Origin: Candidatus Sericytochromatia bacterium
GTDB lineage: Bacteria > Cyanobacteriota > Sericytochromatia > UBA7694
NCBI GenBank assembly: GCA_963797915.1
Contig: CAWCRG010000017.1
Span: forward strand, 171,074-235,073
Reading direction: 5' to 3'
Length of the DNA: 64,000 nucleotides
Part shown: piece by piece, positions 6,367-62,353 of the stretch
Numbering within the stretch: position 1 is the first letter of the stretch
Layout: each line of letters begins with the position of its first letter
The notes under the pieces: model-generated
Databases searched by the model: none
The model's input: only the letters and a program-made list of their open reading frames with translations
Told to the model about the DNA's origin: nothing
Translations under genes and position numbers: made by a program

Positions 6367-7236
6367 ATGTTAAAATCGGTCACCCGTATTGTTTTGAGTC
6401 TGACTTGTGTCTGCACAAGCGCAATGACAGCCTATGTTTCAGCCGGATATGCTGCCGATGCCACTGATATGAAGGTTCAGCGCGTAACCGAAACGCACGG
6501 GAATGTAACGATTGACTGGTCTGAAGGTGTGGTGCGGGTCATTGGGGTGGGAACACCTCCTGATCGTGGAACCCTTTCTCAAAAACAGCTGATGGCTGAA
6601 CGCTCCGCCACTGCGGATGCCTATCGTCAACTGGCTGAGGCCCTTGGTAATATTCGGGTGAACTCTGAAACCATTGTGCGAGACTATACTGCTGAAAGCG
6701 ATACCCTTGAAAGTTATTTGCAAGCCCTGATCAAGGGTGCGCCAAAGCTAGACCAGCGGTATTTAGACGATGGCACGATTGAGGTTGAAATGGCTGTTAA
6801 GCTTTACGCAACCAAGGGCTTAAGCGGTATTTTACAACCCCAAAAACATATTACCCCCCCCCTGCCGGTGACCGAAAAGCCCGATGCCAACCCTGGCGAT
6901 TACTCCGGCGTGATTATCGATTGCCGTGGTCTGGGGTTAGAGCCTGCCATGAGCCCGGCCGTCATGAGCCAAACCGGGGGGGAGGTCTATCTGGGGACTG
7001 TTCAAGTAGAGCCTGACTTTGTGATCACCCAGGGGATTGTGGGCTATGCCTACTCTCTGGCCCAGGCTCGCCAAAATGTGCGGGTGGGAGCCAAGCCGTT
7101 GATTATTAAAGGTCTGAGTGCTACTGGAAGTTTTCGTACAGATGTTGTGATCGCCAAGGAAGATGTGCGGCGTTTGCTGGGATTAGACGCCAGCAAAAAT
7201 GTTCTGCGCCAGGCTCGCGTTATTCTGGTAAAGTAA
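6367..7236 (+). CDS. secreted/periplasmic hypothetical protein (signal peptide)
   Basis: The N-terminus has a signal peptide (LSLTCVCTSAMTAYVSAGYA). I recognise no catalytic motif. Confidence 0.4.
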   Translation: MLKSVTRIVLSLTCVCTSAMTAYVSAGYAADATDMKVQRVTETHGNVTIDWSEGVVRVIGVGTPPDRGTLSQKQLMAERSATADAYRQLAEALGNIRVNSETIVRDYTAESDTLESYLQALIKGAPKLDQRYLDDGTIEVEMAVKLYATKGLSGILQPQKHITPPLPVTEKPDANPGDYSGVIIDCRGLGLEPAMSPAVMSQTGGEVYLGTVQVEPDFVITQGIVGYAYSLAQARQNVRVGAKPLIIKGLSATGSFRTDVVIAKEDVRRLLGLDASKNVLRQARVILVK

Positions 7237-7561
7237 GCCCTTTAAGCTCCAGCGTTCTCACATTTTGAATGCAAAACCCTGGGGCAATTTCAGTATAGGC
7301 AATGACCGGTGTGTGAGGAGCTGCGCGCTCAATGAGAAGGCGCAGCTCTCGACGAATGCGAGAGTCACACAAAATAGCTACCCGTTGAAACCCTTCGGCC
7401 CTGGCATAGGCAAGCGTTTCAGATAATACCTCAAAAAACTGAGCCAGCAGGTTCGGTGCTAGAATTAAGCGCGAACCCGCTGGTGTGTCTTGCAACGACT
7501 GAATGAGCGCTTTTTCTAACGCTGTAGACAAGGTCATCACATTCAGTGCGTTGGTGCACAT
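7220..7561 (-). CDS. hypothetical protein translationally coupled to thiolase
   Basis: The start ATG immediately follows the thiolase TAA (TAAATG). I have no family assignment. Confidence 0.3.
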   Translation of the reverse strand: MCTNALNVMTLSTALEKALIQSLQDTPAGSRLILAPNLLAQFFEVLSETLAYARAEGFQRVAILCDSRIRRELRLLIERAAPHTPVIAYTEIAPGFCIQNVRTLELKGLTLPE

Positions 7562-19514: not shown

Positions 19515-19787
19515 TTAGTGCCAGCCTATCTTCCAGTGCTCAGCATTTTTTAAGGCCTTCACGTTTATTTCATAGATCTGTCGGGTTAAGACCGCTTCGA
19601 TCTCAATAATTTCCGATTGTTTTCCCCGTTCTCTTTCATGCCAGCCCAAGACCACAAAGTGCTTATATGGGACGCCAGAGCGTTCTTGCTGAAGGGGGAG
19701 GGCGGTCCACTTGGAGCCGATAAGCTTCGCTTTACTAAATCGGTTCTGCGGGCCATTGCTATCGTTGGGTAGACGGTATCGCATCAC
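19515..19787 (-). CDS. small Trp-containing hypothetical protein downstream of fliR
   Basis: A 90-aa ORF 5 nt after the fliR stop. No recognised motif. Confidence 0.3.
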   Translation of the reverse strand: MMRYRLPNDSNGPQNRFSKAKLIGSKWTALPLQQERSGVPYKHFVVLGWHERERGKQSEIIEIEAVLTRQIYEINVKALKNAEHWKIGWH

Positions 19788-19792
19788 GACAA

Positions 19793-20746
19793 TTACTCAT
19801 TGAGTCCCGGTGATGTGGAGGGCTCTAGCGTACCTGCTGGGGGGGCAATCGGCCCACGATCGGGAAGTCCTTTAAAGATGGGGAAGCCTTCGGGAACCCC
19901 TTCATTTTCGAGTTGAGCTTTAAAGCGCGCATTTTCATTTTGCTGTTGATAACGAATACCCTCGGCAGCGGCGGTTACGGCATTTTGAGCATTGGCCGAC
20001 ATTCGGTAAGAGAAATCTTCCATGACCGATAATAGCGTGGAAAAAATAACGGTAATCAGCAGTGCGCCTGTCGTCGGTTTCAGAGCGAAGTTAAGTTCTA
20101 AAATATTGATCTGTGGAGCAACACGGTTCATCATTCCCAGGCCAAAGTCTACAACAAAAATAACAATAATAATCGGTAGGGCGATCTGAACACCGAGGTC
20201 AAACAATTGTGAAGTAATTTTAATCAGCTCTGCTAGCGCCATATTAGACCCAAAAGAAAAGGTGCCAATGGGCATAATCTCAAAGGTTTTGAAGTAAGCC
20301 CTGAGCATGAACAAGTGAGCATAAGAAGAAATCAAAACAATCAGTGCCAACTGATACATGAGCTTACCAATAACCGTCGTACGCGCCTTGGTTTGCGGGT
20401 TAAATTGAGACACCATGCTTAAACCAATTTGTACGTCGATAATTTCTCCACCGGCCTGAATGGCCAATAAAATAATACTGGCGCTAAAGCCAAACAGTAC
20501 CCCCACTAAAAACTCTTGAATGAGCATAAGAATATAAGGCAGTAATGTGGCCGGGAGTTCCATGGGGAGATTGGGATTACCCAGAAGATAAAAGAAGGAT
20601 AGCGAAAGGGCAATGGCTACGCGCACCATGCCGGGGACGGTCTGAGTGCCTAAATAGGGAGCCTGAATCGTAAGGGCCATGGTGCGTGCCACCACGAGCA
20701 TAAAGATCGGCACATAATGGGCGAGCGTGAGTACAATATTATCCAC
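19793..20746 (-). CDS. fliR: flagellar export apparatus protein FliR with ~60-aa C-terminal extension
   Basis: A 6-TM protein in the FliR position after fliQ. The operon context is conserved. The extra hydrophilic tail reads ...AAAEGIRYQQQNENARFKAQLENEGVPEG.... Confidence 0.75.
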   Translation of the reverse strand: MDNIVLTLAHYVPIFMLVVARTMALTIQAPYLGTQTVPGMVRVAIALSLSFFYLLGNPNLPMELPATLLPYILMLIQEFLVGVLFGFSASIILLAIQAGGEIIDVQIGLSMVSQFNPQTKARTTVIGKLMYQLALIVLISSYAHLFMLRAYFKTFEIMPIGTFSFGSNMALAELIKITSQLFDLGVQIALPIIIVIFVVDFGLGMMNRVAPQINILELNFALKPTTGALLITVIFSTLLSVMEDFSYRMSANAQNAVTAAAEGIRYQQQNENARFKAQLENEGVPEGFPIFKGLPDRGPIAPPAGTLEPSTSPGLNE

Positions 20747-20749
20747 GGT

Positions 20750-21022
20750 TTATCGCCCGAGATAGGCAGGAAGATTGTTTAACAAATGCCGCATATATTG
20801 ATCTAAGGTACTTAAGTGCCAGGGGCTAACCAGCAGCAGCATGAGAAATACACAAATGGTTTTGGGTACAAAGCTGAGGGTTTGTTCCTGAATCTGCGTG
20901 ACCGCCTGTAAAATACTGACGGTCAAACCCACCAACATCGCTGTCAAAATCATGGGCAATGACATGAGTACAATCAGCGTAACGGCTTCTTGACCCAGGG
21001 TGAGAATAAGAGATTGTGACAT
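20750..21022 (-). CDS. fliQ: flagellar export apparatus protein FliQ
   Basis: An 89-90 aa 2-TM protein with the FliQ/SctS pattern (LTLGQEAVTLIVLMSLPMILTAMLVGLTVSILQAVTQIQEQTLSFVPK). Confidence 0.8.
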   Translation of the reverse strand: MSQSLILTLGQEAVTLIVLMSLPMILTAMLVGLTVSILQAVTQIQEQTLSFVPKTICVFLMLLLVSPWHLSTLDQYMRHLLNNLPAYLGR

Positions 21023-21031
21023 AGTAGGTTA

Positions 21032-21862
21032 CTAAATCCTAAAACTGGTGACGAGGGCTTGCAAAATCAAGAACCAGCCGTCAGCGAGGGTGAATACCAG
21101 AATTTTAAAGGGAAGCGAAATCGTAACCGGGGATAACATCATCATCCCCAATGCCAGGAGTGTATTGGCGACCACTAGATCAATAATTAAGAATGGTAGG
21201 AATAGCACAAAGCCCATTTTAAAGCCGGTGGTCAACTCAGACACCATAAAGGCAGGAACGACCACTTGAAGAGGGACATCTGATGGGCGTTGGGGCTGCT
21301 TCTGATTGGCGAGACGAATAAAGAACCCCAGCTCCTGCTGGCTGGTATGCTTGAGCATAAAGGTCTTCAGGGGGGTAATGGCCCGTTCAACGGCTATGGA
21401 TTGGGTGATGGTATTGTCTAAATAGGGCACAATGGCGTCATTATTGATTTTGTCCCATACCGGCGACATGGTGTAGAGTGTTAAAAAAATCGCGATGCCC
21501 ATGACCACCTGGTTGGGCGGGTTGGTTTGGGTTCCCATCGCGGTTCTTAAAAAGCTGATGACAATGACGGTGCGAATAAACGATGTCGTCATGATAAACA
21601 GAAAAGGCAAAATGGTCAGCATGGACATAAATACAATCAATTGCAGAGGTGAGCCCAGCTCAGAAAGCTTCATGGGCTGACGCAGGTCGATCGTATCTAA
21701 AAGCCCTGTGGACTGAATGGCTGGTACAGGCGTTGTGGGTAGGGGACCTGAGTTACCCACCGCGCTCTGTGCTAAAGCCGGCATGAAATCGCTCATACCC
21801 CAAATAAGTAGCCCCAGGGCTACAAAAAAGACGCTTATTTTAATCCATTTAAGATGCTTCAT
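21032..21862 (-). CDS. fliP: flagellar export apparatus protein FliP
   Basis: Signal peptide plus conserved FliP/SctR blocks (ILPFLFIMTTSFIRTVIVISFLRTAMG ... PAFMVSELTTGFKMGFVLFLPFLIIDLVVANTLLALGMMMLSP). Confidence 0.9.
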   Translation of the reverse strand: MKHLKWIKISVFFVALGLLIWGMSDFMPALAQSAVGNSGPLPTTPVPAIQSTGLLDTIDLRQPMKLSELGSPLQLIVFMSMLTILPFLFIMTTSFIRTVIVISFLRTAMGTQTNPPNQVVMGIAIFLTLYTMSPVWDKINNDAIVPYLDNTITQSIAVERAITPLKTFMLKHTSQQELGFFIRLANQKQPQRPSDVPLQVVVPAFMVSELTTGFKMGFVLFLPFLIIDLVVANTLLALGMMMLSPVTISLPFKILVFTLADGWFLILQALVTSFRI

Positions 21863-22250
21863 TTTTAGTCAAATAATCCGCAAACGCATTGGTTTGTTCT
21901 TGTGGTTGTTGGGACTCAGGTTGATGACCTGGAGCCTTTAATTGGGCGAGGGATTCAATTTGGGTTTCGGTGGTGCCGATTAGCCAGTATTGCTCTCCAA
22001 AAACTCTCACCAGATAAACGTTTTTTCGAGGCTCTAAACTTTTTTTTTCGAGAACCTCGATATGGTTGGTATTCTGGCGCTGAGTGGGTGTGGCAAATAA
22101 ATGACCAATACCCAGAGCCAGCTTACTATTGGTCGGTGTGCTGTCACGGGTTTTTAACTTCACCAGAACATAGGCCAGAATTCCCATCAAAATGACGAGA
22201 AAAATCATGTTTTTCATGTAGCCTAAGTAATCGAAGTGAAAGGGTTCCAT
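21849..22250 (-). CDS. fliO: flagellar protein FliO (single TM)
   Basis: It sits immediately upstream of and overlapping fliP. It has one N-terminal TM helix and a conserved-type segment VYLVRVFGEQYWLIGTTETQIESL. Confidence 0.5.
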   Translation of the reverse strand: MEPFHFDYLGYMKNMIFLVILMGILAYVLVKLKTRDSTPTNSKLALGIGHLFATPTQRQNTNHIEVLEKKSLEPRKNVYLVRVFGEQYWLIGTTETQIESLAQLKAPGHQPESQQPQEQTNAFADYLTKNEAS

Positions 22251-22258
22251 GTCAGAGC

Positions 22259-22702
22259 TTAGTAGCCACCGTCATCAAAGCCGGTATCCATCATCATATC
22301 GTCACCCATGCCCGCATTGACGTTCTGGCTGCCCTGAGGCTTGTGAACGCGAGTGATTTTGACACCGAAGTTATTTCCAATAACCACGACTTCGCCCTGG
22401 GCGATGAGACGTCCATTGACGAGTAGATCAACAGGTTCTCCGGCGAGACGATCCAGTTTAATCACCGATGCGTCTTCCAGTTGTAATACTTCTTTTAACG
22501 GTAAATTGGTGCGACCGAGTTCAACGGTAACGTCCATTTTTACGTCTTTGACCAGCTCCAGATTACCGAGAACACCGGTGACTGCTGATGTTGGTAAATC
22601 TCGCACAAGCGGTGCAAATTTTACAGGGCTAACCGTCATTTTACGGCTGGCTTTAGGGGTTTGTAAATCTCCCACGGGTGAATGCCTCCTCTTTTGGATC
22701 AC
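22259..22702 (-). CDS. fliN: flagellar motor switch protein FliN (SpoA domain) with acidic C-terminal tail
   Basis: SpoA/FliN core (VTVELGRTNLPLKEVLQLEDASVIKLDRLAGEPVDLLVNGRLIAQGEVVVIGNNFGVKITRV). The tail reads GMGDDMMMDTGFDDGGY. Confidence 0.8.
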   Translation of the reverse strand: MIQKRRHSPVGDLQTPKASRKMTVSPVKFAPLVRDLPTSAVTGVLGNLELVKDVKMDVTVELGRTNLPLKEVLQLEDASVIKLDRLAGEPVDLLVNGRLIAQGEVVVIGNNFGVKITRVHKPQGSQNVNAGMGDDMMMDTGFDDGGY

Positions 22703-22705
22703 GCT

Positions 22706-24679
22706 TTATATAATTGCTCCACTTCCATTGCCATTCTGGCGCTGAAAGTTGGTGTTGGATACTTGAACAGCCAGTGAGTCTTCTGACACAATAAGCTGTC
22801 CTTTTCCTTTACGCACCCCGTTAAACAGGATGTCGATTTCTTCGTCTGCAGGTTTGTCCAGCAAGACAAGGGTTCCTACTTTAAGGTTAAGCCACTCCGT
22901 AATATCCAGAGTCGCCTGGCCTAGCTCTGCGGAAACCTCCACAGGAACATTACCCAGCTCACCAAAGGACTCATCAAGGGCGGTGGCCAACTGCTTGCGA
23001 TCCACAAAGCTGCTTTGACGGCCGCCTTTGGGTTGCGTAATCAGTTCGCGGGTATCGATACCAAAGACACTTTCGAAATCCCGACCAAATTCTTCAATAA
23101 TTTCAGACGTCAGGTTATCGTCTTCCATCGCCAGTTCATCCATCAGACGATCATTGGCCAGTTCGGTTTCCAACTCATCATCAGGAATAATCATTCCCAT
23201 GCCACCAAAGTTAACAATGGAAGGATTGGGAAGATTTCCGCCAACAAGCTGATCCGCAGGTATGAAGCGGCCGGTAGGTTTAATGACGTACTGGTCTAAA
23301 ATAACCGACTCACTCATGGACATGCCCTGAGGAGAAAGCTTGGCTACCATGATGAGTACGAGGGGAACCATGATACCGGCAACGGTTAATCCATTACTAA
23401 AAGCCATATCTGGAACATTTGAGAGTCCCAGGCTTTGCAATAGTGGACGCACGTTGTCGTTTGTGAGCAGACCGCTGAAGAGTATATTCAGTGGCAGAAT
23501 CACCGCAGCACCGAGCAAGAAGCCGACCGAGGAGCCATAAAAGAGTCCGACGAAAGCACGGTAAATAAGATCTACAGGCTTCATAATCGGTGCTTTGTTT
23601 TGCACATTGGTGGTGACTTCACCGGTTTCAATGTTGAAGATTTCTTGCTTGGTTTCGGAGAATGGCGTGTCAAATTGTCTCAGTAAGCCAAAGAGCGCAC
23701 CGGCAATACCGACAATAAAAGCATATCCCAGGGCAGCACATAAAGCTCCGCCTAAGAAGGCACTATTGATAATGGGATCGTCGTTACTTAGCGGAGACTC
23801 ACTATTGTTTTCTGTGGGTGCAGAAGGGATAGCGTCGGCAGGAAGTGTGTTGACAATGTCTGCTGCGGCCGCGCCGGCCACAGGCTCTTTAACATACTCA
23901 CTCAGATTGTTGCCCTCTTGAGCACCGGCAGCAGCGACTGAGCCACCAATGGTGTTCTGGGCGTTTTCTCTATTAATTTGTGCCTGCTTAAATGAGGAAA
24001 ATACCGTTTCTTCCTGGTTTTCTTCGAATAAACGGGAGACTTTGTCAGAGCTCAAGGGCTTACCCGATAAGGTAAACGGATTGCCCGTCGCCATACCTGA
24101 AATGTTCCAGAATGTAATACCCAATAAAACCACTGAAATGGTGAGCAGTTCAGGCACAAAGCGGAAGAAACGACGAACGTTTAAACCGACCGTGAACTGG
24201 TCATAGTTGCTGGTGATAAAAACAAGATGATAGACAGAGAGTGCGAGTCCTACCACCAACCCCAGTGTGAATAACCACATAACAGAGCTTAGGCCTGCAC
24301 GTAAACCAAATAAAACAAGAAGAGATAGAGAAACTAAACCCGCTAAGATAATGCCCCCATATCCAACGAAATTCCGGTGGATACCACTTCTTAAAAAGAG
24401 TTTGCTTTGTTCGGGGGGAGGCTCAGGAGCGGCAAGCACCTCTTCCTCTTCAGTCTCATTTTCTGGGTGTCCACCCAAAAGAGAGGCTGCAAAGGCTTCG
24501 GCTGCATTTTCTTCGGCCTCGCGCTCAGCTTTTGCAGCTTCAAGCACGTCAGAGCCGAAGAGATCATCCTCTTCCTCGTCGTATTCATCATCGTATTCGT
24601 ATTCGTAATCGTCGTCGTTTGTGGCCATTTGCATGGGCCGACGCAACAAGTCGTCCAAAGACGAATCATGCTGGTACAT
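22706..24679 (-). CDS. novel polytopic membrane protein with acidic N-terminus and C-terminal FliN/SpoA domain, encoded between fliM-like and fliN
   Basis: The N-terminal 90 aa are D/E/Y-rich. About 7 TM helices span aa 105-540. A cytoplasmic acidic linker follows. The C-terminus is a SpoA domain (VPVEVSAELGQATLDITEWLNLKVGTLVLLDKPADEEIDILFNGVRKGKGQLIVSEDSLAVQV). A 4-nt overlap with the fliN start indicates translational coupling. Confidence 0.5.
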   Translation of the reverse strand: MYQHDSSLDDLLRRPMQMATNDDDYEYEYDDEYDEEEDDLFGSDVLEAAKAEREAEENAAEAFAASLLGGHPENETEEEEVLAAPEPPPEQSKLFLRSGIHRNFVGYGGIILAGLVSLSLLVLFGLRAGLSSVMWLFTLGLVVGLALSVYHLVFITSNYDQFTVGLNVRRFFRFVPELLTISVVLLGITFWNISGMATGNPFTLSGKPLSSDKVSRLFEENQEETVFSSFKQAQINRENAQNTIGGSVAAAGAQEGNNLSEYVKEPVAGAAAADIVNTLPADAIPSAPTENNSESPLSNDDPIINSAFLGGALCAALGYAFIVGIAGALFGLLRQFDTPFSETKQEIFNIETGEVTTNVQNKAPIMKPVDLIYRAFVGLFYGSSVGFLLGAAVILPLNILFSGLLTNDNVRPLLQSLGLSNVPDMAFSNGLTVAGIMVPLVLIMVAKLSPQGMSMSESVILDQYVIKPTGRFIPADQLVGGNLPNPSIVNFGGMGMIIPDDELETELANDRLMDELAMEDDNLTSEIIEEFGRDFESVFGIDTRELITQPKGGRQSSFVDRKQLATALDESFGELGNVPVEVSAELGQATLDITEWLNLKVGTLVLLDKPADEEIDILFNGVRKGKGQLIVSEDSLAVQVSNTNFQRQNGNGSGAII

Positions 24680-24706: not shown

Positions 24707-25606
24707 TTATGATTCTATTATCTGTACGGCAAGATAACGGCCGTCCGGGGTGGTTCCTGGAGAGCCCTTCATTTGGGTTTCCTTGCCGACTTTTACATTG
24801 AGTGGGGCATCAATGGTTTGTTCCAAAATAATGAAGTCGTTGAACTCCATATTCTGAATGTCCGAAAAACTCATTCGGGTCTTACCAAGTTCTACAATCA
24901 CAGGTGTGGTGATATCGTCCACCATGCCAATACGAGACTGGACCTGTTCAAAGTCGCCCTCTTCTACCATGGTTTCATTCACAGATTGCAAAACATGGTA
25001 GAGCGGTGCCAGGTAGGGCTGCGGGAAGATCAGGGACGCTTTTTGAACTTCGCGAGCAATCATGCTCACCTGGAAGGTAATGGTAATGCAGGGCGTTTCT
25101 GTATTCAGACCCATTAATAAATTGCGGAACTCATCAATGGTAGGAGTGTTAGGAAACGTTGCCAATTGTAAGCTGAGGGGGTGGTATTCTCCCCAAATGG
25201 TAGAGAACGCCTCAGAAAATTGCTGAATGCGATTGTCAATTTGCCCCAACTCGAACTCGGTTATTTCGTCTTCTGACTCCGGGGCAAGATCTGCACCGGC
25301 CTGACGTACCATAGAAATAACGGATTCTTTTTCGATCACGAGAGCGACGCCGCCCACCAATGATTCTCCGAATCCCAACAGAGACCAGACAGAGTCTCGG
25401 GGATACTTTCTCAAAATTTTCTGGAACGGATTTTGCTCAACACTAATCACTTGCCATGTTGCTGCAGACGTTGGTTCAGCGGATAATATCTCCGTTAACG
25501 TTTGTGCAACACGATCGTGAATATAATAAAGGGCTTTAAGATCCTCTGAAGTCAGAGGACGCGCGCTGGAAAACCGTAACGATTGCAGCGGATTATCCTT
25601 AGCCAA
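24707..25606 (-). CDS. fliM: flagellar motor switch protein FliM-like (TTG start)
   Basis: An N-terminal LTSEDLKAL peptide resembles the FliM CheY-P-binding motif. A middle domain follows, then a C-terminal SpoA domain (PVIVELGKTRMSFSDIQNMEFNDFIILEQTIDAPLNVKVG). A GAGGT RBS lies 7 nt before the TTG. Confidence 0.65.
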   Translation of the reverse strand: MAKDNPLQSLRFSSARPLTSEDLKALYYIHDRVAQTLTEILSAEPTSAATWQVISVEQNPFQKILRKYPRDSVWSLLGFGESLVGGVALVIEKESVISMVRQAGADLAPESEDEITEFELGQIDNRIQQFSEAFSTIWGEYHPLSLQLATFPNTPTIDEFRNLLMGLNTETPCITITFQVSMIAREVQKASLIFPQPYLAPLYHVLQSVNETMVEEGDFEQVQSRIGMVDDITTPVIVELGKTRMSFSDIQNMEFNDFIILEQTIDAPLNVKVGKETQMKGSPGTTPDGRYLAVQIIES

Positions 25607-25826: not shown

Positions 25827-27272
25827 GTGTTACATTTCTTTAAGAAAAACCCCTCAATGACTTCCCTGTGCGCTCTACTTTGCTCGTTTTCGCTTTTTTT
25901 TGCGTTTCCTGCTCAGGCTTTTAACGCCAGTACAGCGCAACAGATTCTCAATCAGGCGGGTTTATCTTCTCAAAACACAGCAGTACGTATGGTTTCAATG
26001 AAAACAGGGCAGGTGTTGTTTGAGCAGAATGCAGATAAGGCATTGATGCCTGCTTCAAATATGAAAGTGATTACCTCAGCGGCGGCACTGCACCTACTGA
26101 AGCCCGAGTTTCGCTTTAAAACCACCTTGTACAGCAATGCGAGTGTGCGAAGCGGCGTTTTGCGGGGAGATCTTTATCTTAAAGGCTACGGGGATCCTGT
26201 GCTTAACGATGATCGCCTCGGAGAGCTGGTCCAGGAGCTTCGCTTTGCGGGGGTAGAAAGCATCGCCGGTAATTTATACGTAGATGATTCCTTTTTTGAT
26301 GCTGAAACCCGTGGGAAAGGCTGGAAAGAAACCTACGGCGCAGCCGCTTATAGCGCGCGTATTTCAGCGCTTTCGCTCAATTTAAACACCGTTGAAGTCC
26401 AGGTGAAACCCGGTCAAATGGGGCAGGCCGCGAATGTGCGCTTAAAGCCAGACAATACGTTTTTTGATGTGGTCAATAAAACCCGTACGGGCAGTGGGCA
26501 AACCCGCCTTAAAATTTCTCGACAGTGGGTTAATAATCGCAATCAAATTGTTGTCTCTGGTCAGGTCAACGTTCGGGGGCGCACCGAAAGTGAGCGCATT
26601 AACTTAGATAAACCCGGTTTGTACGTGGGCAACGTCGCGCAGTCCATGCTCAAGCAAGAGGGTATTCAGTTTCAGGGTAAATTGCTCAAAGGCAACACCC
26701 CTGCAGGCGCCCGTATTCTCGCCTCTACGCTGTCTCCCCCCCTGAAAGATATTGTGACCCAGCTAAACAAAGACAGCGTCAATCTCATTGCTGAAAATTT
26801 GCTGAAGTTTATGGGCGCGAACTTTATGGGCGCTCCGGGAACGGCACAAAAAGGGGCGCAGGTCGTTAAAGAACGTTTTCTGATCAGTCAGGTGGGTATT
26901 GACCCCAATACGCCGATGGTTATTGCCGATGGCTCTGGCCTCTCGCCACTCAACCGTCTGACGGCGACGACGCTGAGCCGTGTGCTGGAGTATATGTTCC
27001 AGCAATTTGACGTGAGTGTGGACTTTATGGGTTCATTGGCCATCTCTGGGGTGGACGGAACCCTTCGGAAACGCATGAATACGCCCTTGCTTAAGCGGCG
27101 AGTACGCGCCAAAACCGGTTTTATTAACGGGGTCTCCGCACTGTCGGGTTATGTGTATACGCAAAAAAATGAAGTGATCATCTTTTCCTTTTTGATGAAT
27201 CACTTCACAAGTTATGGAGCCGCTATTCAGGCCCAGCAGCGTTTGTGTGAGTTGCTAGCCACAACCCCCTAG
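25827..27272 (+). CDS. dacB: D-alanyl-D-alanine carboxypeptidase/endopeptidase PBP4 (peptidase S13)
   Basis: A signal peptide, an SxxK active-site motif (PASNMKVIT) and DacB-like length and architecture. The likely start is the Met at 25857. Confidence 0.8.
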   Translation: MLHFFKKNPSMTSLCALLCSFSLFFAFPAQAFNASTAQQILNQAGLSSQNTAVRMVSMKTGQVLFEQNADKALMPASNMKVITSAAALHLLKPEFRFKTTLYSNASVRSGVLRGDLYLKGYGDPVLNDDRLGELVQELRFAGVESIAGNLYVDDSFFDAETRGKGWKETYGAAAYSARISALSLNLNTVEVQVKPGQMGQAANVRLKPDNTFFDVVNKTRTGSGQTRLKISRQWVNNRNQIVVSGQVNVRGRTESERINLDKPGLYVGNVAQSMLKQEGIQFQGKLLKGNTPAGARILASTLSPPLKDIVTQLNKDSVNLIAENLLKFMGANFMGAPGTAQKGAQVVKERFLISQVGIDPNTPMVIADGSGLSPLNRLTATTLSRVLEYMFQQFDVSVDFMGSLAISGVDGTLRKRMNTPLLKRRVRAKTGFINGVSALSGYVYTQKNEVIIFSFLMNHFTSYGAAIQAQQRLCELLATTP

Positions 27273-28523: not shown

Positions 28524-29261
28524 TTACAAGTCGGTGGGTGTATAAAGAATCTTGCGTAAGCGTTTTTCGGCCTGTTTGAGTTTTCGGCAAACATCCATTT
28601 GTGACATATCGAGGTGACGGGCGATATTCGCCTGGGTGAGATCTTCGAAGTAGCGTAGTCTCAGCAGGTTTTGATCGAGCTCTGACAATTGACGTAGGCC
28701 TTCATCAATCAAAATGCGGGTATCCATGCGCTGTTGTAGCCCACCGTCTTCATCGGGGAGGGTATCGAGGAGTGTGCGGCTTTCGTTTTCACTCCCGCTT
28801 CCGTAGCGTTGATCGAGCCAGAGCATTTTCGCTTTGCGGGCATAGTTTAGCGCATCATCTACCTGCTCAGCAGTAATCCCCAGGTGTTGGGCGACATCAT
28901 CAGGAGTGATCAGGCGTTTATGTTTTTGCTTGAGCTCTTTTTGAGCCATTTGTACTCGATAAGTCAGTTCCTGTAAGGAGCGGGGACCCTTGAGTAACTG
29001 CTGACGGTCTCTGAGATAGTGACGAATATGGCCGTTGACAAAGTGCGTGGCATAGGTCTTAAAAGAAGCGGCCTGATTGGGATCGTAACGCCGGTGAGAT
29101 TCTAACAAGCCGATCATGCCCACCTGAATAAGATCCTCTACCGGATCTACCGTGCGGCGGGAGAGGGTATGGGCAATTTTATATACCAATGCAGCATAGT
29201 CCTGTACCACTTGTTCAGGGGACAGTTTTGCTGTTTCATGCTGTTGTCGTGATTTTGCCAT
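28524..29261 (-). CDS. RNA polymerase sigma factor, sigma-70 group 3 (FliA/SigB-like)
   Basis: Region 2 (IQVGMIGLLESHRRYDP...FKTYATHFVNGHIRHYL) and region 4 HTH (LTQANIARHLDMSQMDVCRKLKQAEKRLR) are present. The gene lies 3 kb from the flagellar operon. Confidence 0.65.
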   Translation of the reverse strand: MAKSRQQHETAKLSPEQVVQDYAALVYKIAHTLSRRTVDPVEDLIQVGMIGLLESHRRYDPNQAASFKTYATHFVNGHIRHYLRDRQQLLKGPRSLQELTYRVQMAQKELKQKHKRLITPDDVAQHLGITAEQVDDALNYARKAKMLWLDQRYGSGSENESRTLLDTLPDEDGGLQQRMDTRILIDEGLRQLSELDQNLLRLRYFEDLTQANIARHLDMSQMDVCRKLKQAEKRLRKILYTPTDL

Positions 29262-34261: not shown

Positions 34262-35626
34262 TTATTCAATACGAGAAACGGTAAGTAATTGGGGGGGCGT
34301 ACTATCTGCTGGGTAGTAAAGGCTCAGGGTGACATCGTAATCAATTCCTGGTGCCAGGGTAAAACGCTCCAGGGGCTGAGGCTCTTGTCCGTGCTGTAAT
34401 ACCAGATGAGAAAAGCGTTCTTGTTTTTGATTATACTCATCGGTCCATTGTAGTTTGGTGCTGCCCCGGTACATGACTGGTTTATTGGGCGGGAATACAA
34501 AACTTTGTTCATCCTTGTTTTGTGACACCGGGTGAGAAAGTCCGATGCTATAGGTTTGATAACTACTGGTGCGGTTATGCAGCGGAATTTCAATATCGTA
34601 GCGGACACCGTAGTTGGCATGATTTTGATAGGCCGTATCCGCGTAGCGTCTTAAGAGTTCTCCGCTCTGGTTTTGGTTGGTGCCCATGCGCTTTAAGTAA
34701 ACCGCAGAGATCGGGTAACCGACAGTGTCCCCTACCCCCGGACGCTGCAGAAGCGCATCGCCCTGAAAGAGCTTGCTCTGCCAGGTGAGTCCCTGGCTAA
34801 TGCCGGCCACACGGCCATAGCGGAAGGGGCCTTGTGGCTTTTCACGCGTGTAGTTGGTGGGCGTTTCTTCGCGCTTACCGGCCATTTTGCCGCTGTTTAA
34901 TAGCTCGCGGTAGTCTTCGACGGTAGGGGCGACAAAACCCTCGCCTTTTTTATCGGCGAAATAGGCCAAATGGGACACATAAAGCGAGTTAGAGCTGTTG
35001 AAGTACATGAGACTCGAGCGGCCGTTGATGGGCGGCAGGATTTTGACATTGGTAGGAACAGGCAAACTGGCGATCAGCTCTGTGGAGCGGGGGGGGATTA
35101 TAAAGGTCTTGTTTTTAAGGGGCGTGGTATCGGTTAAGAGTTCTGTGGTCACGCGATCACCGGGTCCGGCATAAACGCTTCCATTGGGGTTGTCGGTCAG
35201 TGTGGGCAGTGACTTAAAGAGAGCGTCGGGCTGGCTCAGGTAAGAGGCTCCGCTGGTTAACTCAAGGGTTACCGGTGTGGCGTTCGGGTTTGTGACCAGG
35301 GTGCCTAAGTAAAGTAAGCGCACACCGGGAGCTGGATCTCGCGCGATATGGTGGGAGAAAACACCAAAGCGCCCTTTGAAAGGGAAGTCTAAATAGGCCG
35401 GCGATTTACCGGGCAGTGAAGAGACTAAAATGCCAGAGCTCTCGACAATTTCGGGGCTGTTGCTGTTGAGCATGGGGTCGGCATCGAGGCTGCCGGGCAA
35501 GGGGAAAATCTTAATATTTTGAACTGTTTTAACCTGGTCTGGGCTATCGGCCAGGACGGGACTGATAGGCGAAAGGGAGAAGCTTGCGAGCAGTGCTAAA
35601 GAAAAAAGGGCGTGTGTGTACTTCAT
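34262..35626 (-). CDS. large secreted hypothetical protein (signal peptide)
   Basis: Signal peptide MKYTHALFSLALLASFSLSPISPVLA. The mature 430 aa are unassigned. Confidence 0.4.
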   Translation of the reverse strand: MKYTHALFSLALLASFSLSPISPVLADSPDQVKTVQNIKIFPLPGSLDADPMLNSNSPEIVESSGILVSSLPGKSPAYLDFPFKGRFGVFSHHIARDPAPGVRLLYLGTLVTNPNATPVTLELTSGASYLSQPDALFKSLPTLTDNPNGSVYAGPGDRVTTELLTDTTPLKNKTFIIPPRSTELIASLPVPTNVKILPPINGRSSLMYFNSSNSLYVSHLAYFADKKGEGFVAPTVEDYRELLNSGKMAGKREETPTNYTREKPQGPFRYGRVAGISQGLTWQSKLFQGDALLQRPGVGDTVGYPISAVYLKRMGTNQNQSGELLRRYADTAYQNHANYGVRYDIEIPLHNRTSSYQTYSIGLSHPVSQNKDEQSFVFPPNKPVMYRGSTKLQWTDEYNQKQERFSHLVLQHGQEPQPLERFTLAPGIDYDVTLSLYYPADSTPPQLLTVSRIE

Positions 35627-56642: not shown

Positions 56643-58217
56643 GAACCAGAGTAAGAAGACGATCAGGAGCAGGCCACCGCTGAGCACCAGGTTTAGACCG
56701 CGCTGATTGTCTTTGAGAGCCGCTTCGTTTACGCCGCTGTTTTCAAACAGGCTCAGATGCTTACTGCTGGGACGCTCCGACAACAGGCTGACCCCAATAA
56801 TTACGCCCCATGAAATACAAAATAACAGCACGGCAAAGTGCAAGAAGTTAATCGTGGCGAAGCTGTGTAAGGGGCCTGTCGTCAAATAACCGGCTTTTAC
56901 CGCAATTTCGCTGGCGAAGCGCAAAAAACCTAAAATGCAGCCCGTAATCAAAGCACTGAAAGCGCCCTTGCCATTGGCGCGCTTCCAGAGCACACCGGCC
57001 AAAAAGACGGCGGCAATCGGCGGTGAAATATAAGCCTGAACCGACTGCAAATACAGGTAAATCTGCTCGCTCATCAGTCCCAATAAAGGCAACCATAAGA
57101 GCCCCATAATGACCATGACAATGGTGGCCATCTGACCTGCTCTGACGAGCTCTTTTTCTTTGGCTTCGGGCTTATAACGGCGATAAAAATCCATAGCGAC
57201 AAGGGTTGAGGCACTGTTAAACACGCTCGATAATGAACTCATCAGGGAGGCCAATAAGCCGGCAATTACCAGACCCTTAATACCCACCGGCAAGAGAGTG
57301 TTCACCAGTGTTATATACATCTTATCAGGAGCCATCTCCGGGTATAGAATGTGTCCAGCGAGGCCCGGTAAGACTAAGATAAACACGGGCAACAGCTTTA
57401 AAAAGCCTGCAAAAATGGTGGCTTTTCGGGCATGGTCAAGGTTTTTAGCAGCTAAGGTGCGCTGCACAATCATTTGATCGGTACACCAGTACCAGATGCC
57501 TAAAATGGGGGCGCCAAACAAAACCCCTGTCCACGGAAAATCAGGATGACTGGAAGGCTTCCACAGATTGAGGTAGCCCGTAGGTGTTTGAGACAACATG
57601 CTAGAGATGCCGCCCACCTCCTGAATGGCCAGATAGGTTAATAAAAAACCACCGGAAATAAGAATCCCTGCCTGCAGAAAGTCTGTATAAATAACGGCCC
57701 GGAGGCCCCCAAAGAGGGTGTAAATACCGGTGGCGACAATAAGCAGTGTGGCACTGACCCAGATATTCCAGCCTAAAATAGCGTTGAGCACGAGGGCTCC
57801 TGCATAAACAGATACCGATATTTTGGTGAATACATAAGCCAGTAAGGACACCGAGGCCAGGTACGTGCGGCATGCCCGGTTAAAGCGCTTCTCTAAAAAC
57901 TCAGGCATGGTAAACACACCGGTTTTAAGATAAAAGGGCACAAAAAGCCAACCCAGAATCAGTAATATAATACAGGCTAACCATTCAAATTGCCCCACGG
58001 CCAGTCCGCTGGCGGAGCCTGTGCCCGCCAGGCCAATAAAGTGCTCCGCAGAAATATTGCTGGCAAATAGGCTGGCCCCAATAGCCATCCAGCCCACATG
58101 GCTACCGCCTAAAAAATAGCTTTTGCTGTCCTCGCGACTTCCACGGCTGCTCCACCATCCGATCACGCCAATCAACATAAAGTACAGAATCAGAATGGCA
58201 AAATCGGTGGAGGTCAC
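56610..58217 (-). CDS. sodium:solute symporter (SSF/SglT-like), GTG start overlapping the stop of the upstream giant gene
   Basis: The SSS-family N-terminus (YFLGGSHVGWMAIGASLFASNISAEHFIGLAGTG) and about 14 TM helices. Confidence 0.8.
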   Translation of the reverse strand: MTSTDFAILILYFMLIGVIGWWSSRGSREDSKSYFLGGSHVGWMAIGASLFASNISAEHFIGLAGTGSASGLAVGQFEWLACIILLILGWLFVPFYLKTGVFTMPEFLEKRFNRACRTYLASVSLLAYVFTKISVSVYAGALVLNAILGWNIWVSATLLIVATGIYTLFGGLRAVIYTDFLQAGILISGGFLLTYLAIQEVGGISSMLSQTPTGYLNLWKPSSHPDFPWTGVLFGAPILGIWYWCTDQMIVQRTLAAKNLDHARKATIFAGFLKLLPVFILVLPGLAGHILYPEMAPDKMYITLVNTLLPVGIKGLVIAGLLASLMSSLSSVFNSASTLVAMDFYRRYKPEAKEKELVRAGQMATIVMVIMGLLWLPLLGLMSEQIYLYLQSVQAYISPPIAAVFLAGVLWKRANGKGAFSALITGCILGFLRFASEIAVKAGYLTTGPLHSFATINFLHFAVLLFCISWGVIIGVSLLSERPSSKHLSLFENSGVNEAALKDNQRGLNLVLSGGLLLIVFLLWFLLSPLNGFTG

Positions 58218-61200
58218 TAGACCTTGACCTCATCAAAAAGAATGCGTTCCATTTGGGCTTGCACGACCTCAGCGACGTACCGTAAATCTTCGGCCATGAC
58301 CTCGGGATCCTGGCCGGGATCCATGATGAAAGAGATAATGATATCTTTGCCGAACTTGTCTGCTAAAATCTCCTCAGGAGAAGGGAATGTTTTGATCACC
58401 GTACCTGAACGTTCGAGCATCATTAATACGAGCGAGGCGCGCACCGATTTCATCATGCAGTTTTCCATGAGCGTAATATGAGCTTCCATCCCCCACATGG
58501 CTTTTTCTTCAGCAGAGCGAATCAGACGTTTTTCAATGGGGTTATAATAAGGCGTCACTTTTTCAATCATCTGCTTTTTACCCCGATTGGCGCCGGTTAC
58601 CGGGGGTAAGAACACGTCATTCCCCATCTTAAAATACCAAACCCGTTCTTGATTGGCGTCGATTTCAGTCAGCTCTCGGCCATTGTTGTAGGTAATAAAC
58701 GTATTGCCATTCTCAAGACGTTCGACACGGGTCGGGTTTAAAATTTTCTGACGTAAGGTTTTATTGCCTTCGTAAAGCCAGACCTCTTTTCCCTCCAGGG
58801 TGACTTCGAGCACCCGATGATTCCGGGTGTCAGCAATTAAGGTGTTGCCATTACTTAAGCGGGTCGCAAATTCAGGGGCAAAGAGCTGACCGGGTCCGGT
58901 GCCTTTCATGCGGCTGCCGTAGGACCAGCGCAGATTGCCTTCGCGATCGACTTCGCGAATGCTGTTGAGCATAGAATCGGCAAATAAAATATGTCCGTTT
59001 TCTAGTTCCTCGACATATTGGGGGGAAGAAATTTGCCCCATGCGCTTAAATTCCCAGGTAATCTCTTCGCGCCCGTTGATTTCTACGAGACGTTTATTGC
59101 GCTGGTCGGCAATGAGTGTGCGTCCAAAGTTAAGGCGCTGGGCCGCACGAGGGCCACCTGAGCGGTCTGTCTCAGGGCCTCTAAATTCTGCAATGACATC
59201 TTTATCGGTTTTTGAAATCTCCACCACGCGATTATTGCCAGTATCTGCCACCAGTAGGGTTCGGCGGGTTTCTGTGAGGTGGTAAGGGCGGGACAGGGTT
59301 TGGCCCATCTCAAAGCCGTAGTGCCATTTGACTTCACCCTTACGATTGATGCGAATGACGGCGTTGTGGTGTTTATCAATGGCGTAATGACGAAGGCCTT
59401 TGAGCTCTGTGTTTTCTGCCTGAAAAATTTCAGAGGGTTGAAAGGTATCTAGCATTAACTCGTTGCGCAGGGTACGCTTGGATTCTAGCTTGCGATCTTC
59501 AATGAGGGATCTGAGTTTATCTGCAGCGCTATTGGATTTACCATCGTCATCGATATCGGTGGAGATCTCTCCCCGTAAACGGGCTTCGATCAGCTTTTGC
59601 ATGCGCTTAAAGTTAATTTTTTGGGCCAGACGCACCGGACGCAGCTCGCCATGATCAACAACCTTATAGACCAGTCGCTCGTTGCCATCGGCGTCCACAA
59701 CGACTTCAGGTGCGTCGACTTTGGGTTGAAAAGCCAGATCCTCAATTTTACTGTGCCAGACAAGCTTTTGACCACTTAGCATAATTTGCAGCATTTTATC
59801 TTCATCCATGATGAAAATATCTTTATTGATCATTCGAATCATTTTAATGGGAGACACTACCCGAAAGGCTTTTTCCATGTCGGGGGTGTAGTAGGTGCAT
59901 TCGTTGATAATATCGCCTGAGGGGTCAATCTCAAGAAGCCGATAATTACCGGCATCTAGAATCAACGTGTTTTCGTTAAACAATCGCATGGCTGCGGTGG
60001 GGGTTTTGAGCTTGTACTTCTCGCCAAAGACCTGTTCAATACCGCCCTCTTTTTTATACTCAATGACCCGATGATTGCCCGTGTCCGTGATCAGAAAGGT
60101 TTCGTTATGGGTGAACTGAACGTCACTGGGCGTATCGAGATTACTTCCTTCACTGCCGCGAACGCCTTGTACGCCAAACTCACGAATAATTTCGTGGCGG
60201 GTATTGACTTCTAAGACACGGTGATTGCCCTGATCGACAATTAGCCAATGGCGATCGCCCACATCTTCGGGTAAATAATAGGTGATTTTGACCGGCTCGT
60301 TGAGGGCGTGGGCTGGACTGGCGTGGGTATCGAAGCGCCAGAAAACTTTACCCCGCAGACCCACTTCTATAATTTGATTGCCGTCTTTGTCCACCACCAT
60401 GACGTTATCATTGGGCATCCACAGGGTATCCACAGGGTAGTCACAAGACAATTGATCGGGGTCCAGGTTCCAGCTGACATATTTATAGGGGTTGAGCTGC
60501 AATAGGCGCAGGCCTTGAGGGTCGGGAATGACGATATGTCCCCGGGGGAGGTTGGCGGTCGGTTCTGCAGAGGCGATGCGGCGTTTGTTGGCCCGGTCGG
60601 GACTTTCTAATTCAAAACCACACACATTACAGTCCCAGCTGCCCAGCAGTTTTTGATTACAATTGGGACATTGGTGAGGCACCAGACGGGCATTATCTTT
60701 GACGGACTCTTTAAGCTCGAGCATCATGACAATGGCTTCACGCACGATGACGCTTTTTAAGCCGTGTCCTTCAAAAAGATCCTCCACCTGCACAACGGTT
60801 GAGTCGTAGTCTTCTAGCTCGACACGGGCGCGTTCAGCCGCGTCCTGCAACCGTTGTACGACATCTTCATAGGTGCTGATATCTTCATCGACCTGCTTTT
60901 GGAAGGTATTTAAAAGAATGTCGTAAATCTCTTCTCGGGCTTCTGGTGGCAGAGAGATATGATTGGTTTTTTTCGGGGTAATACTGAGCGTATCAGAGTC
61001 TGGATTGTTTTCGGTACTGGTGGCAATATCCATAATCTGGTATTCCACCTCAAGGAATTCTTCTTCCTTGTCGGCTTCGTCAGCGCTATCCTCTGAAGCC
61101 GCGTCTAACTCGTCTTCATCTAACTCATCTTCAGCATGAATAACGGCGGGTGCATCTTCTAAGTCGGGATCTTCGCCCAGTTGTTCCCGCAGTTCCCGTT

Positions 61201-62353
61201 TTAGGGTCCACATGGCCTGGGGGCCCATGAGTTCTGCCCCCAGCACAAGCTCTTCAAGGCTGCGCGTATAAGGTGCCAGTTCATTGGCAATACCGTAAGC
61301 CAGTTGGTAAGGTTTGATTCCGTCTTTGAGCGAATACCGGCGAAGGGTTTTAACCTGTTTGGCGTCAATGACGCTAATAATTGGTGTAAAGGGCTCAGGA
61401 CTATTCAAATAGCTCATCACCATGACAAACTCTCCACCCGGAGAGACGCTTAACAAATCGCAGGGGTCACTGCTATCGGCCTTAAACAAGTCGCCTTTGA
61501 GCTTAATGTCTTTTTCGGACTCCCAGGTCTGGGTATTGACGTAATGCAAGCCAACATTGGGCTTGATACTTATCAAAAAGAGGTGTTGACCGGTAGGGGC
61601 CATGGCGAGGTTTCCCAAAATACCCAGGCCCACGCGCTGGCGCTCTAAACGCAAGGTTTCGAGACTTAGTTTATAAAGCCCGGCACTTTGGTTGTCTGTA
61701 ATATAGACCATGCCCTGATCTTCATCAATGGCTATATTAAGTGTGCTTAGCCCGCCGCTGGATCGAATATTGATGGGTTCTGAAAGCTCTCTATTGCGGG
61801 TGTTGAAAATTCTTACTGACCCCGCTCCACGGTCGCTAATGCAAAGATATTGTCGGCTGGGAGACAGGTAGAGATCAAAAGGGGTGCTTTCGGGCTTGCC
61901 TTTGTAAACGCCCGCAAATATCGCGTGACGAGACTGGGCAAGATGTTGGGTGTCGAGGCGGCCTTCATTGTATAAGTAGACGCGCTCATCGGTAACGACA
62001 AGTCCGTAGGGAGCGTTGAGCTCTCGGTCAAAGATTTCCTGGCGCTGGCCTTCTTGCGTGTCAGCCAATAAGGCATGGCTACCCCAGTCGTCCCAGTCTT
62101 CAATGTTATATCGGGGCGATTGGGGCGTTGCTAAAGAAACATTCGCCTCGACGGTTCCCGAAGGATGACTTTGAATACGTAATTCATTTTTTTTGAGATC
62201 AATAAGGTAGGCGGTGCCAGCGACTTTATCCTGGTGGCTGATAAAGTCTTGCTCCTGCTTTTGCAGGAGCTCTTGCAGGGTTTCAGCGGGCACTAGTTGG
62301 CGCTCAATCAGAGCTTCCTGGAGAATTTCATTGGTTATCTTTGATCTTGCCAT
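58217..62353 (-). CDS. 1378-aa multi-domain protein: N-terminal beta-propeller-like region, acidic linker, zinc ribbon (CPNC...CNVC), about 10 NHL-type propeller repeats, and a ~110-aa C-terminal alpha/beta domain
   Basis: There are repeated D[TQA]GN[HNY]R[VL][LVI]E[VIY] blades: DQGNHRVLEV, DTGNHRVIEY, DAGNYRLLEI, DTGNNRVVEI, DQRNKRLVEI, DTRNHRVLEV. A CPNCNQKLLGSWDCNVCG ribbon and an Asp/Glu-rich linker are present. There is no signal peptide. Confidence 0.6.
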   Translation of the reverse strand: MARSKITNEILQEALIERQLVPAETLQELLQKQEQDFISHQDKVAGTAYLIDLKKNELRIQSHPSGTVEANVSLATPQSPRYNIEDWDDWGSHALLADTQEGQRQEIFDRELNAPYGLVVTDERVYLYNEGRLDTQHLAQSRHAIFAGVYKGKPESTPFDLYLSPSRQYLCISDRGAGSVRIFNTRNRELSEPINIRSSGGLSTLNIAIDEDQGMVYITDNQSAGLYKLSLETLRLERQRVGLGILGNLAMAPTGQHLFLISIKPNVGLHYVNTQTWESEKDIKLKGDLFKADSSDPCDLLSVSPGGEFVMVMSYLNSPEPFTPIISVIDAKQVKTLRRYSLKDGIKPYQLAYGIANELAPYTRSLEELVLGAELMGPQAMWTLKRELREQLGEDPDLEDAPAVIHAEDELDEDELDAASEDSADEADKEEEFLEVEYQIMDIATSTENNPDSDTLSITPKKTNHISLPPEAREEIYDILLNTFQKQVDEDISTYEDVVQRLQDAAERARVELEDYDSTVVQVEDLFEGHGLKSVIVREAIVMMLELKESVKDNARLVPHQCPNCNQKLLGSWDCNVCGFELESPDRANKRRIASAEPTANLPRGHIVIPDPQGLRLLQLNPYKYVSWNLDPDQLSCDYPVDTLWMPNDNVMVVDKDGNQIIEVGLRGKVFWRFDTHASPAHALNEPVKITYYLPEDVGDRHWLIVDQGNHRVLEVNTRHEIIREFGVQGVRGSEGSNLDTPSDVQFTHNETFLITDTGNHRVIEYKKEGGIEQVFGEKYKLKTPTAAMRLFNENTLILDAGNYRLLEIDPSGDIINECTYYTPDMEKAFRVVSPIKMIRMINKDIFIMDEDKMLQIMLSGQKLVWHSKIEDLAFQPKVDAPEVVVDADGNERLVYKVVDHGELRPVRLAQKINFKRMQKLIEARLRGEISTDIDDDGKSNSAADKLRSLIEDRKLESKRTLRNELMLDTFQPSEIFQAENTELKGLRHYAIDKHHNAVIRINRKGEVKWHYGFEMGQTLSRPYHLTETRRTLLVADTGNNRVVEISKTDKDVIAEFRGPETDRSGGPRAAQRLNFGRTLIADQRNKRLVEINGREEITWEFKRMGQISSPQYVEELENGHILFADSMLNSIREVDREGNLRWSYGSRMKGTGPGQLFAPEFATRLSNGNTLIADTRNHRVLEVTLEGKEVWLYEGNKTLRQKILNPTRVERLENGNTFITYNNGRELTEIDANQERVWYFKMGNDVFLPPVTGANRGKKQMIEKVTPYYNPIEKRLIRSAEEKAMWGMEAHITLMENCMMKSVRASLVLMMLERSGTVIKTFPSPEEILADKFGKDIIISFIMDPGQDPEVMAEDLRYVAEVVQAQMERILFDEVKV

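Follow-up and report, generated by a model that had tools for sequence, protein, structure and literature searches.

A 64,000-nucleotide stretch of the genome of a Candidatus Sericytochromatia bacterium (GenBank assembly GCA_963797915.1, contig CAWCRG010000017.1, positions 171,074 to 235,073; here called the window) carries a tight minus-strand operon, fliM'-X-fliN'-fliO'-fliP'-fliQ'-fliR', in which the product of the second gene, a FliN-like protein that we call X, joins a six-helix membrane domain to a C-terminal SpoA domain. The Sericytochromatia are a nonphotosynthetic sister lineage of the photosynthetic cyanobacteria. The SpoA proteins of the flagellar C-ring and of the injectisome sorting platform (FliN, FliY, the C-terminal part of FliM, and SctQ) are soluble components, and a full-text search of the literature found neither a membrane-integral SpoA or FliN protein nor an account of Sericytochromatia flagellar genes. 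Comparison with related genomes showed that X is conserved together with its gene order, that its operon belongs to a divergent module, coexisting in some of these genomes with a canonical FliM-FliY operon, and that the FliM' proteins of this module have lost the motifs for contacting FliG and phosphorylated CheY (CheY-P). We tentatively propose that X anchors in the membrane the FliM'/FliN' platform of a second export apparatus derived from the flagellum, taking the place of the FliG link. The SpoA domain itself is known; the architecture of X, the FliM' motif losses, and the paralogous module are undescribed in the literature that we found, in agreement with a first-pass annotation of the window, made from its letters and open reading frames (ORFs), which knew of no described equivalent.

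Architecture and conservation of X

The X ORF (22706..24679, minus strand; TAA stop at 22708-22706) encodes 657 amino acids (aa), which is the extent that the first-pass annotation had given it. The N terminus is acidic and Tyr-rich, as was also claimed: residues 22-39 read DDDYEYEYDDEYDEEEDD, and aa 1-104 contain 32 Asp/Glu against 7 Lys/Arg residues. At the other end, Pfam FliMN_C (PF01052) matched aa 574-642 (22754..22960, minus strand) with an E value of 1.3e-18 and 67.1 bits (cutoff, 23.8). This FliN-type SpoA domain was the sole Pfam domain in X, all 30 X family members matched PF01052, and hidden Markov model and fold searches both identified the C terminus as a SpoA fold. The operon thus does carry three consecutive SpoA-domain genes (fliM', X, and fliN'), since Pfam recognized the domain in each. 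X scored below the cutoffs of the FliN equivalog TIGR02480 (56.8 bits versus 84.05), of the SctQ equivalog TIGR02551 (37.5 bits versus 100.8, with the SpoA region alone matched), and of the FliY model (NF005995 / NF006272; 39.4 bits versus 218). No CheC-like domain was matched by Pfam in any of the 30 members, and when the X family was aligned with canonical Sericytochromatia FliY by hhalign, the SpoA domain alone aligned, with no CheC-like remnant. The SpoA domain of X was more divergent than that of FliN', scoring 35 to 52 bits against the C-terminal domain of canonical FliY compared with about 100 bits for FliN'. Set against the LSQxEIDALL-type peptide of FliY, the N-terminal xLDDLLRRP of X is conserved, but distant members diverge and the peptide is too short for statistics.

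Between the two ends lies a membrane domain (aa 103-451; 23327..24373, minus strand). The protein had been described as polytopic with about seven transmembrane (TM) helices; polytopic it is, but both methods that we used gave six. Hydrophobic segments by the Kyte-Doolittle scale were at positions 103-126, 128-157, 171-197, 303-334, 375-407, and 425-451, and the AlphaFold model placed helices at 104-127, 132-157, 174-198, 313-333, 366-406, and 423-448, with predicted local distance difference test (pLDDT) values of roughly 71 to 93 in 10-residue blocks, mostly above 85. A shorter subfamily of X proteins, described below, gave the same six helices with pLDDT values above 90. Basic residues are clustered ahead of TM1, in the TM2-TM3 loop, past TM4, and past TM6. 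Because there are six helices, both termini should lie on one side of the membrane, and we infer an N-in/C-in topology, which would place the N-terminal peptide, the TM4-TM5 hairpin, the linker helix, and the SpoA domain in the cytoplasm and the variable TM3-TM4 loop in the periplasm.

Averaged over 27 members of the long subfamily, to which the X of the window belongs, conservation was highest in the predicted cytoplasmic elements (0.78 to 0.85) and lowest in the predicted periplasmic loop (0.45). The N-terminal peptide MYQHDxxLDDLLRRPMQMA (aa 1-20; 24620..24679, minus strand; predicted helix at 6-20) consists of invariant or nearly invariant columns, with a mean of 0.81. It is followed by an acidic, Tyr/Phe-containing, low-confidence and probably disordered stretch that the short subfamily lacks (aa 21-92; 24404..24619, minus strand) and then by the segment preceding TM1 (aa 93-103; 0.85). 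The poorly conserved TM3-TM4 loop (aa 199-300; 23780..24085, minus strand) has Ala/Pro-rich insertions of more than 100 aa in the alignment of some homologues. The TM4-TM5 loop RxFxTPFSxKxxEIxNxETGEVT (aa 334-365; 23585..23680, minus strand; 0.79) is predicted to form a cytoplasmic beta-hairpin with strands at 343-349 and 355-360. TM6 is joined to the SpoA domain by an acidic helical linker containing LTSEIIEEFGRDFExVFGIDTRELI (aa 498-548; 23036..23188, minus strand; 0.78), in which L523, T524, E526, E530, F531, G532, E536, F539, and G540 are invariant, and the SpoA region itself (aa 566-643) had a mean conservation of 0.85. Within the membrane, an invariant glycine zipper, G378xxxG382xxxG386xxxG390, runs along TM5, and TM4 is Gly-rich too. 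A conserved acidic residue inside the membrane, as in MotB/ExbD/TolR, is absent from the helices; among polar residues, N192, R334, and E346 are invariant, and these sit at helix ends or in loops. For the membrane domain, Pfam gave no match at an E value of 5 or below in any of the 30 members, a sequence profile search of the whole PDB with X returned only SpoA proteins, and comparison with known membrane folds (MotA/ExbB, FliO, FliF, SctD, and transporters) revealed no sequence or fold similarity and no matching solved structure.

A search of 5.8 billion proteins recovered 27 full-length X homologues or protein clusters of 637 to 775 aa, with 32 to 100% identity, from NCBI, ENA, JGI, and Logan assemblies. 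HMMER over 1.84 billion cluster representatives listed nine clusters with an E value below 1e-30, and nearly all other listed matches were to the SpoA domain only. When one genome per GTDB species was scanned, 17 X loci were found, labelled Sericytochromatia, Blackallbacteria, or Cyanobacteria-MAG. The search for synteny in relatives that the first-pass annotation had suggested gave a clear answer, as the order fliM'-X-fliN'-fliO-fliP-fliQ-fliR was kept in all 17 loci as far as the contigs run and recurred around a 31%-identical X homologue on metagenome contigs. The short subfamily (about 470 aa; 35 proteins from Sericytochromatia) occupies the same slot between fliM' and fliN'; it lacks the acidic N terminus and retains the six helices, the Gly-rich motifs, and the C-terminal SpoA domain. 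In total, the X family comprises about 60 sequences in two subfamilies with invariant motifs. X evolves faster than its partners, with identities of 31 to 82% compared with 58 to 98% for FliM' and 68 to 96% for FliN' from the same loci. Homologues were confined to Sericytochromatia-type genomes and carried only the generic name "FliM/FliN family" in their source annotation, so that X is not a widespread component already known under another name.

The distribution also bears on whether X is a product of faulty assembly or annotation, with an undetected frameshift joining an unrelated membrane protein to an ordinary fliN or fliY. Apart from the unusual architecture itself, nothing speaks for such an artefact, and its probability is negligible: the same architecture and length recurred in the 27 clusters, in 17 GTDB species, and in the 35 short-subfamily proteins, a sequence identical to X was present on an independent Logan contig, and conservation continues unbroken over the TM6-linker-SpoA junction. 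We therefore rejected the fusion, given the uninterrupted architecture in dozens of independent assemblies, and consider X a genuine protein. In four other SpoA proteins from the searches (P0077, P0109, P0147, and P0179), a nearly identical FliN C terminus is preceded at the N terminus by one hydrophobic segment or by a piece resembling LolA or AcrB. These single-pass or signal-peptide proteins look unrelated or chimeric and were left outside the X family; they could have arisen as chimeras during assembly, or they could form a small class of their own, made up of FliN-like proteins that are anchored or secreted.

FliM' motif losses and a second set of flagellar genes

FliM' of the window (24707..25606, minus strand; 299 aa, TTG start) is a divergent FliM paralogue (Pfam FliM, 30.2 bits; FliMN_C, E value of 2e-11) that matched TIGR01397 only from model position 36, with 70 bits against a cutoff of 219.6. 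We aligned eight FliM' proteins with three canonical Sericytochromatia FliM proteins and E. coli FliM. The N-terminal ILSQxEIDALL peptide and the GGXG loop were both present in each of the canonical proteins and in E. coli FliM, and both were absent from all eight FliM' proteins. Canonical FliM proteins begin with M(A/S)EILSQxEIDALL and contain the loop LGGPGR (FGGDGR in E. coli), whereas the FliM' proteins begin about 40 residues later and have the loop replaced by AGADLAPESEDE, by GGSEEEDD..., or by a deletion. Stop codons lie 6 to 141 nucleotides (nt) upstream of the fliM' start (6 to 60 nt in 11 of 13 loci), and the peptide did not appear in any of the sequences translated from upstream. 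In FliM, the N-terminal peptide is the docking site for CheY-P. The contact between the GGXG motif of FliM and the EHPQR motif of FliG is the established interface of these two proteins (PMC7355467). With both the loop and the docking peptide lost, neither suspension from FliG nor reception of CheY-P seems possible for FliM' in the usual manner.

Canonical flagellar genes were found alongside the X module in four genomes with a short-subfamily X, completely in L026 and L030 and partially in L023 and L025. A single contig of L026 (GCA_035285125.1) encodes the canonical, Firmicute-type series FlgE-FliK-FlbD-MotA-MotB-FliL-FliM(333 aa)-FliY(389 aa, CheC+SpoA)-CheY-FliO-FliP-FliQ-FliR-FlhB-...-FlhA and, after it, FlgD'-FlgE'(337 aa)-FliM'(307)-X(469)-FliN'(109)-FliO'-FliP'-FliQ'-FliR'. 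L030 (GCA_040400605.1) has both sets, from FliK onward, with an unannotated 342-aa gene in the place of CheY. The L023 locus (GCA_035284745.1) starts inside the canonical fliO, so that the canonical FliP/Q/R, FlhB, and FlhA are visible and FliM-FliY is not, and the L025 locus (a JGI contig) starts inside the canonical fliR, with FlhB and FlhA visible and FliM-FliY not. The first-pass annotation had put X in the FliY slot of the flagellar operon, a placement contradicted by the coexistence of a canonical FliM-FliY operon and the X operon on the same contig in L026 and L030. Because X belongs to a separate, divergent module alongside a genuine FliY operon, it does not replace FliY. Nor do we regard X as a modified FliY, in view of the missing CheC remnant and of the true FliY on the same contig in related Sericytochromatia.

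The two sets are far apart in sequence. In L023, their FliP, FliQ, and FliR proteins share only 39, 37, and 29% identity, respectively. FliR of the window is nearer to the X-linked set of L023 than to the canonical one (36 versus 28% identity; 158 versus 105 bits), while FliP of the window is nearer to the X-linked set by bit score only, the identities being 47.4 and 47.0%. In a neighbor-joining tree of FliP+FliR (E. coli root, 300 bootstraps), the X-linked proteins of both subfamilies formed one clade (300/300) and the canonical sets another (300/300), closer to E. coli, although long-branch attraction could have inflated the support for uniting the two X-linked sets. Their common origin is also argued independently by the shared X gene and the shared synteny. 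The tree indicates that the duplication is older than the split between the long and short subfamilies. Judged from these sequences, the X module is an old, fast-evolving paralogous (or xenologous) module that stands beside the canonical operon in related genomes.

Possible roles of X

SpoA domains are obligate intertwined dimers (FliN2, FliM-FliN, FliY-FliN, and SctQ-SctQc). In the tethering role that we tentatively assign to X, its SpoA domain would pair in the same way with that of FliN' and/or FliM', and the linker of about 125 residues and the six-helix domain would connect the inner membrane, close to the FliP'Q'R' gate, with the FliM'/FliN' platform. X would supply this link because FliM' seems no longer able to hang from FliG. 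The Gly-zipper helices would favor oligomerization within the membrane, and the conserved cytoplasmic peptide, hairpin, and linker helix could be docking sites for partner proteins. A platform tethered in this manner would probably be CheY independent and need not rotate. Overall, membrane tethering, which the first-pass annotation had suggested as a possibility, appears to be the best remaining explanation for X. The larger proposal that the module is an unrecognized, nonrotary, flagellum-derived secretion or appendage apparatus, in which a SpoA sorting platform is bolted down by a polytopic SpoA protein and not by FliG or SctD-SctK, is one that we consider possible but doubtful.

Several observations, besides the potential long-branch effect in the tree, weigh against tethering within a second apparatus. 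Searches with the canonical genes (tblastx and tblastn) found no canonical set in the window or in 20 long-subfamily loci within the flanks examined, and the contexts of FlhB homologues yielded canonical operons only from short-subfamily genomes or from genomes that could not be linked to X. If the genome of the window had no canonical set, the X module would have to serve as its functioning switch and gate for the flagellum. A second FlgD and a short (337 to 338 aa) hook/rod-like gene lie directly beside FliM'-X in L023 (7499-8972), L026 (15353-16808), and L030 (17008-18455), and such genes would fit a real second flagellum as well as a secretion device. Additionally, no module-specific paralogues of FliF/FliG, FlhA/FlhB, or the ATPase were seen; the X module may draw on those of the canonical system, in which case FliG would be present.

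A second flagellum is the setting for the view, unlikely in our estimate, that X is a FliY-like rotor subunit of a second rotating motor. Its SpoA domain would sit in the base of the C-ring and its helices would rotate along in the annulus between the MS-ring and the stators, while the N-terminal xLDDLLRRP, on its acidic tether, would dock CheY-P. The slot between fliM and fliN is indeed the position of fliY, and the plan of X, with a conserved N-terminal peptide, a long linker, and a C-terminal SpoA domain, parallels that of FliY. FliM' has no CheY peptide of its own, the core LDDLL of X resembles ...EIDALL of FliM, the FlgD/FlgE-like second copies adjoin the module in the short subfamily, and the window encodes a protein with a CheY-binding P2 domain. 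The C-terminal ...VDDLL peptide of CheZ also resembles the LDDLL of X. However, FliM' lacks the GGXG loop as well, which would require an unconventional coupling of torque and switching to FliG, and next to the module, paralogues of motAB, fliG, or fliF were not observed. Distant X proteins do not preserve the DD of the N-terminal motif (they have LHN-L, LYEW, and LDEI), in the short subfamily the acidic tether is missing together with most of this motif, and no CheC-like remnant was found.

Less probable again is a role in assembly or regulation, with X holding FliN'/FliM' at the membrane through SpoA heterodimerization, either as a chaperone or nucleator similar to FliO or as a sequestering brake. 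FliO is an assembly chaperone, and X lies directly upstream of fliN' and fliO'; its faster evolution relative to FliM' and FliN' and its variable periplasmic loop would also suit such a factor. Its presence in every module examined, over deep divergence, would not, and the high conservation of several separate cytoplasmic elements suggests multiple fixed partners. A further possibility, which we think very improbable, is that the membrane domain conducts ions or acts as a stator-like or channel unit to energize or gate the apparatus, with the SpoA domain as its docking module. The Gly-rich TM4 and TM5 with their invariant zipper recall the glycine zippers that are common in oligomeric channels, but no conserved membrane carboxylate and no fold match were found.

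Module genes, neighbors, and comparison with known systems

Downstream of X, fliN' (22259..22675, or from 22702, minus strand; 138 aa, GTG start) encodes what is, by its sequence, a standard FliN/FliY-type SpoA protein (Pfam FliMN_C, E value of 1.6e-24; TIGR02480, 100.9 bits, above the cutoff of 84.05). Its likely start is the GTG at 22675, 9 nt past an AGGAGG, which leaves a gap of 30 nt after X, and an independent gene call on an identical contig also gave a 138-aa FliN'. The earliest in-frame start, the GTG at 22702, would leave 3 nt. The 4-nt overlap and translational coupling of X and fliN reported in the first-pass annotation were thus mistaken. X and fliN' share a reading frame, with only TAA-AGC between them before the first GTG (22676-22708, minus strand). 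This frame relation was not kept in other loci, and we treat it as a coincidence and read-through from X into fliN' as unlikely. A promoter and terminator scan of the X operon gave nothing above shuffled expectation.

The remaining module genes, all on the minus strand, are fliO' (21849..22250; Pfam FliO, E value of 4.6e-14), fliP' (21032..21862; Pfam FliP, E value of 4.2e-73), whose product falls in the divergent X-linked clade, fliQ' (20750..21022; Pfam Bac_export_3, E value of 7.3e-27), and the last one, fliR' (19793..20746; Pfam Bac_export_1, E value of 6.3e-56), which is closest to the flagellar equivalog. In the distant long-subfamily locus L002 (6603-7880), FliO' and FliP' were called as one 425-aa fusion. 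Neither flhA nor flhB was found past fliR' or anywhere in the window, and both must therefore be encoded elsewhere. A free-standing 113-aa protein (7220-7561, minus strand) is homologous to the last subdomain of FlhA only (Pfam FHIPEP, positions 565-654 of 657, E value of 3e-12) and matches aa 593-683 of a Sericytochromatia FlhA at 35% identity. In short-subfamily genomes, a LIM/DA1-like protein is encoded between the canonical FlhB and FlhA, and downstream of fliR' L023/L024 carry genes for a pilin-like protein, a secretin, and a T2SS-F protein.

Divergent from fliM' is a gene for a PBP4-type D-Ala-D-Ala carboxy/endopeptidase (Peptidase_S13; 25827-27272, plus strand), which occupies the same place in 10 long-subfamily loci with 56 to 89% identity and may be a dedicated peptidoglycan-remodelling partner. 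Two genes beyond it, a SigF/FliA-like sigma factor gene (28524-29261, minus strand) is syntenic in the two closest relatives. A DUF2389 (Trp-rich protein) gene directly follows fliR' (19515-19787, minus strand), as it does in several related loci, and together with a DUF3370 gene (34262-35626, minus strand) it flanks the region; we take both families to be typical of cyanobacteria, which would fit a cyanobacteria-related (Sericytochromatia) origin. Farther away, a 1,378-aa protein (58217-62353, minus strand) combines NHL/PQQ beta-propeller repeats with a C-terminal CheA-type P2 domain (aa 1290-1367, E value of 5.5e-14), and this response-regulator (CheY)-binding module outside CheA is an unusual architecture.

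The FliM' motif losses and the deep paralogy suggest that a type III system can attach its cytoplasmic platform to the membrane in a second way, and they may point to a flagellum-derived machine not yet described. If true, this would be an independent route from a flagellum to a secretion machine, parallel to that of the injectisome, and it would bear on how injectisome-like systems originate from flagella and on the use that uncultured Sericytochromatia make of two type III gate sets.

Among known proteins, FliN (PF01052; PDB 1YAB and 8UMD) corresponds to the C-terminal 70 or so residues of X, a FliN-type SpoA domain encoded in a fliM-fliN-fliOPQR-type operon. However, FliN is small and soluble, whereas X has about 570 additional residues, including six TM helices, and a normal FliN' is encoded directly downstream. 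With FliY of Bacillus, Thermotoga, Helicobacter, and Campylobacter, X shares the position after fliM and the order of a short N-terminal peptide, a middle part, and a C-terminal SpoA domain. In H. pylori and C. jejuni, FliM and FliN are accompanied by FliY, so that three SpoA proteins occur together (PMC6946799; PDB 5XRW), and X likewise is a third SpoA protein beside FliM' and FliN'. The middle part sets the two apart, as it is a CheC-like domain in FliY and a membrane domain in X.

Genomes with dual flagella (polar and lateral in Vibrio/Aeromonas, Flag-2 in E. coli, and fla1/fla2 in Rhodobacter) resemble the Sericytochromatia described here in having two divergent switch and export sets per genome. 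To our knowledge, the second sets in those genomes are complete, with soluble FliM/FliN and intact CheY and FliG motifs. In contrast, the X module consists only of FliM', X, FliN', and FliO'P'Q'R' (with FlgD'/FlgE' in some genomes), the motifs are lost, and a membrane-bound SpoA protein is added. In the injectisome, SctK connects the SctQ pods to a membrane protein, SctD, at its cytoplasmic domain. By analogy, the role that we propose for X would be the same, namely to keep a SpoA platform attached at the inner membrane, next to an SctRST/FliPQR gate, with no involvement of FliG. X is related to neither SctD nor SctK in sequence or fold, however, and in X the tether and the SpoA domain form one polypeptide. 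The X module also differs from the injectisome in being of the flagellar type, with a FliM-like protein, FliO present, and a FliR nearest to the flagellar equivalog.

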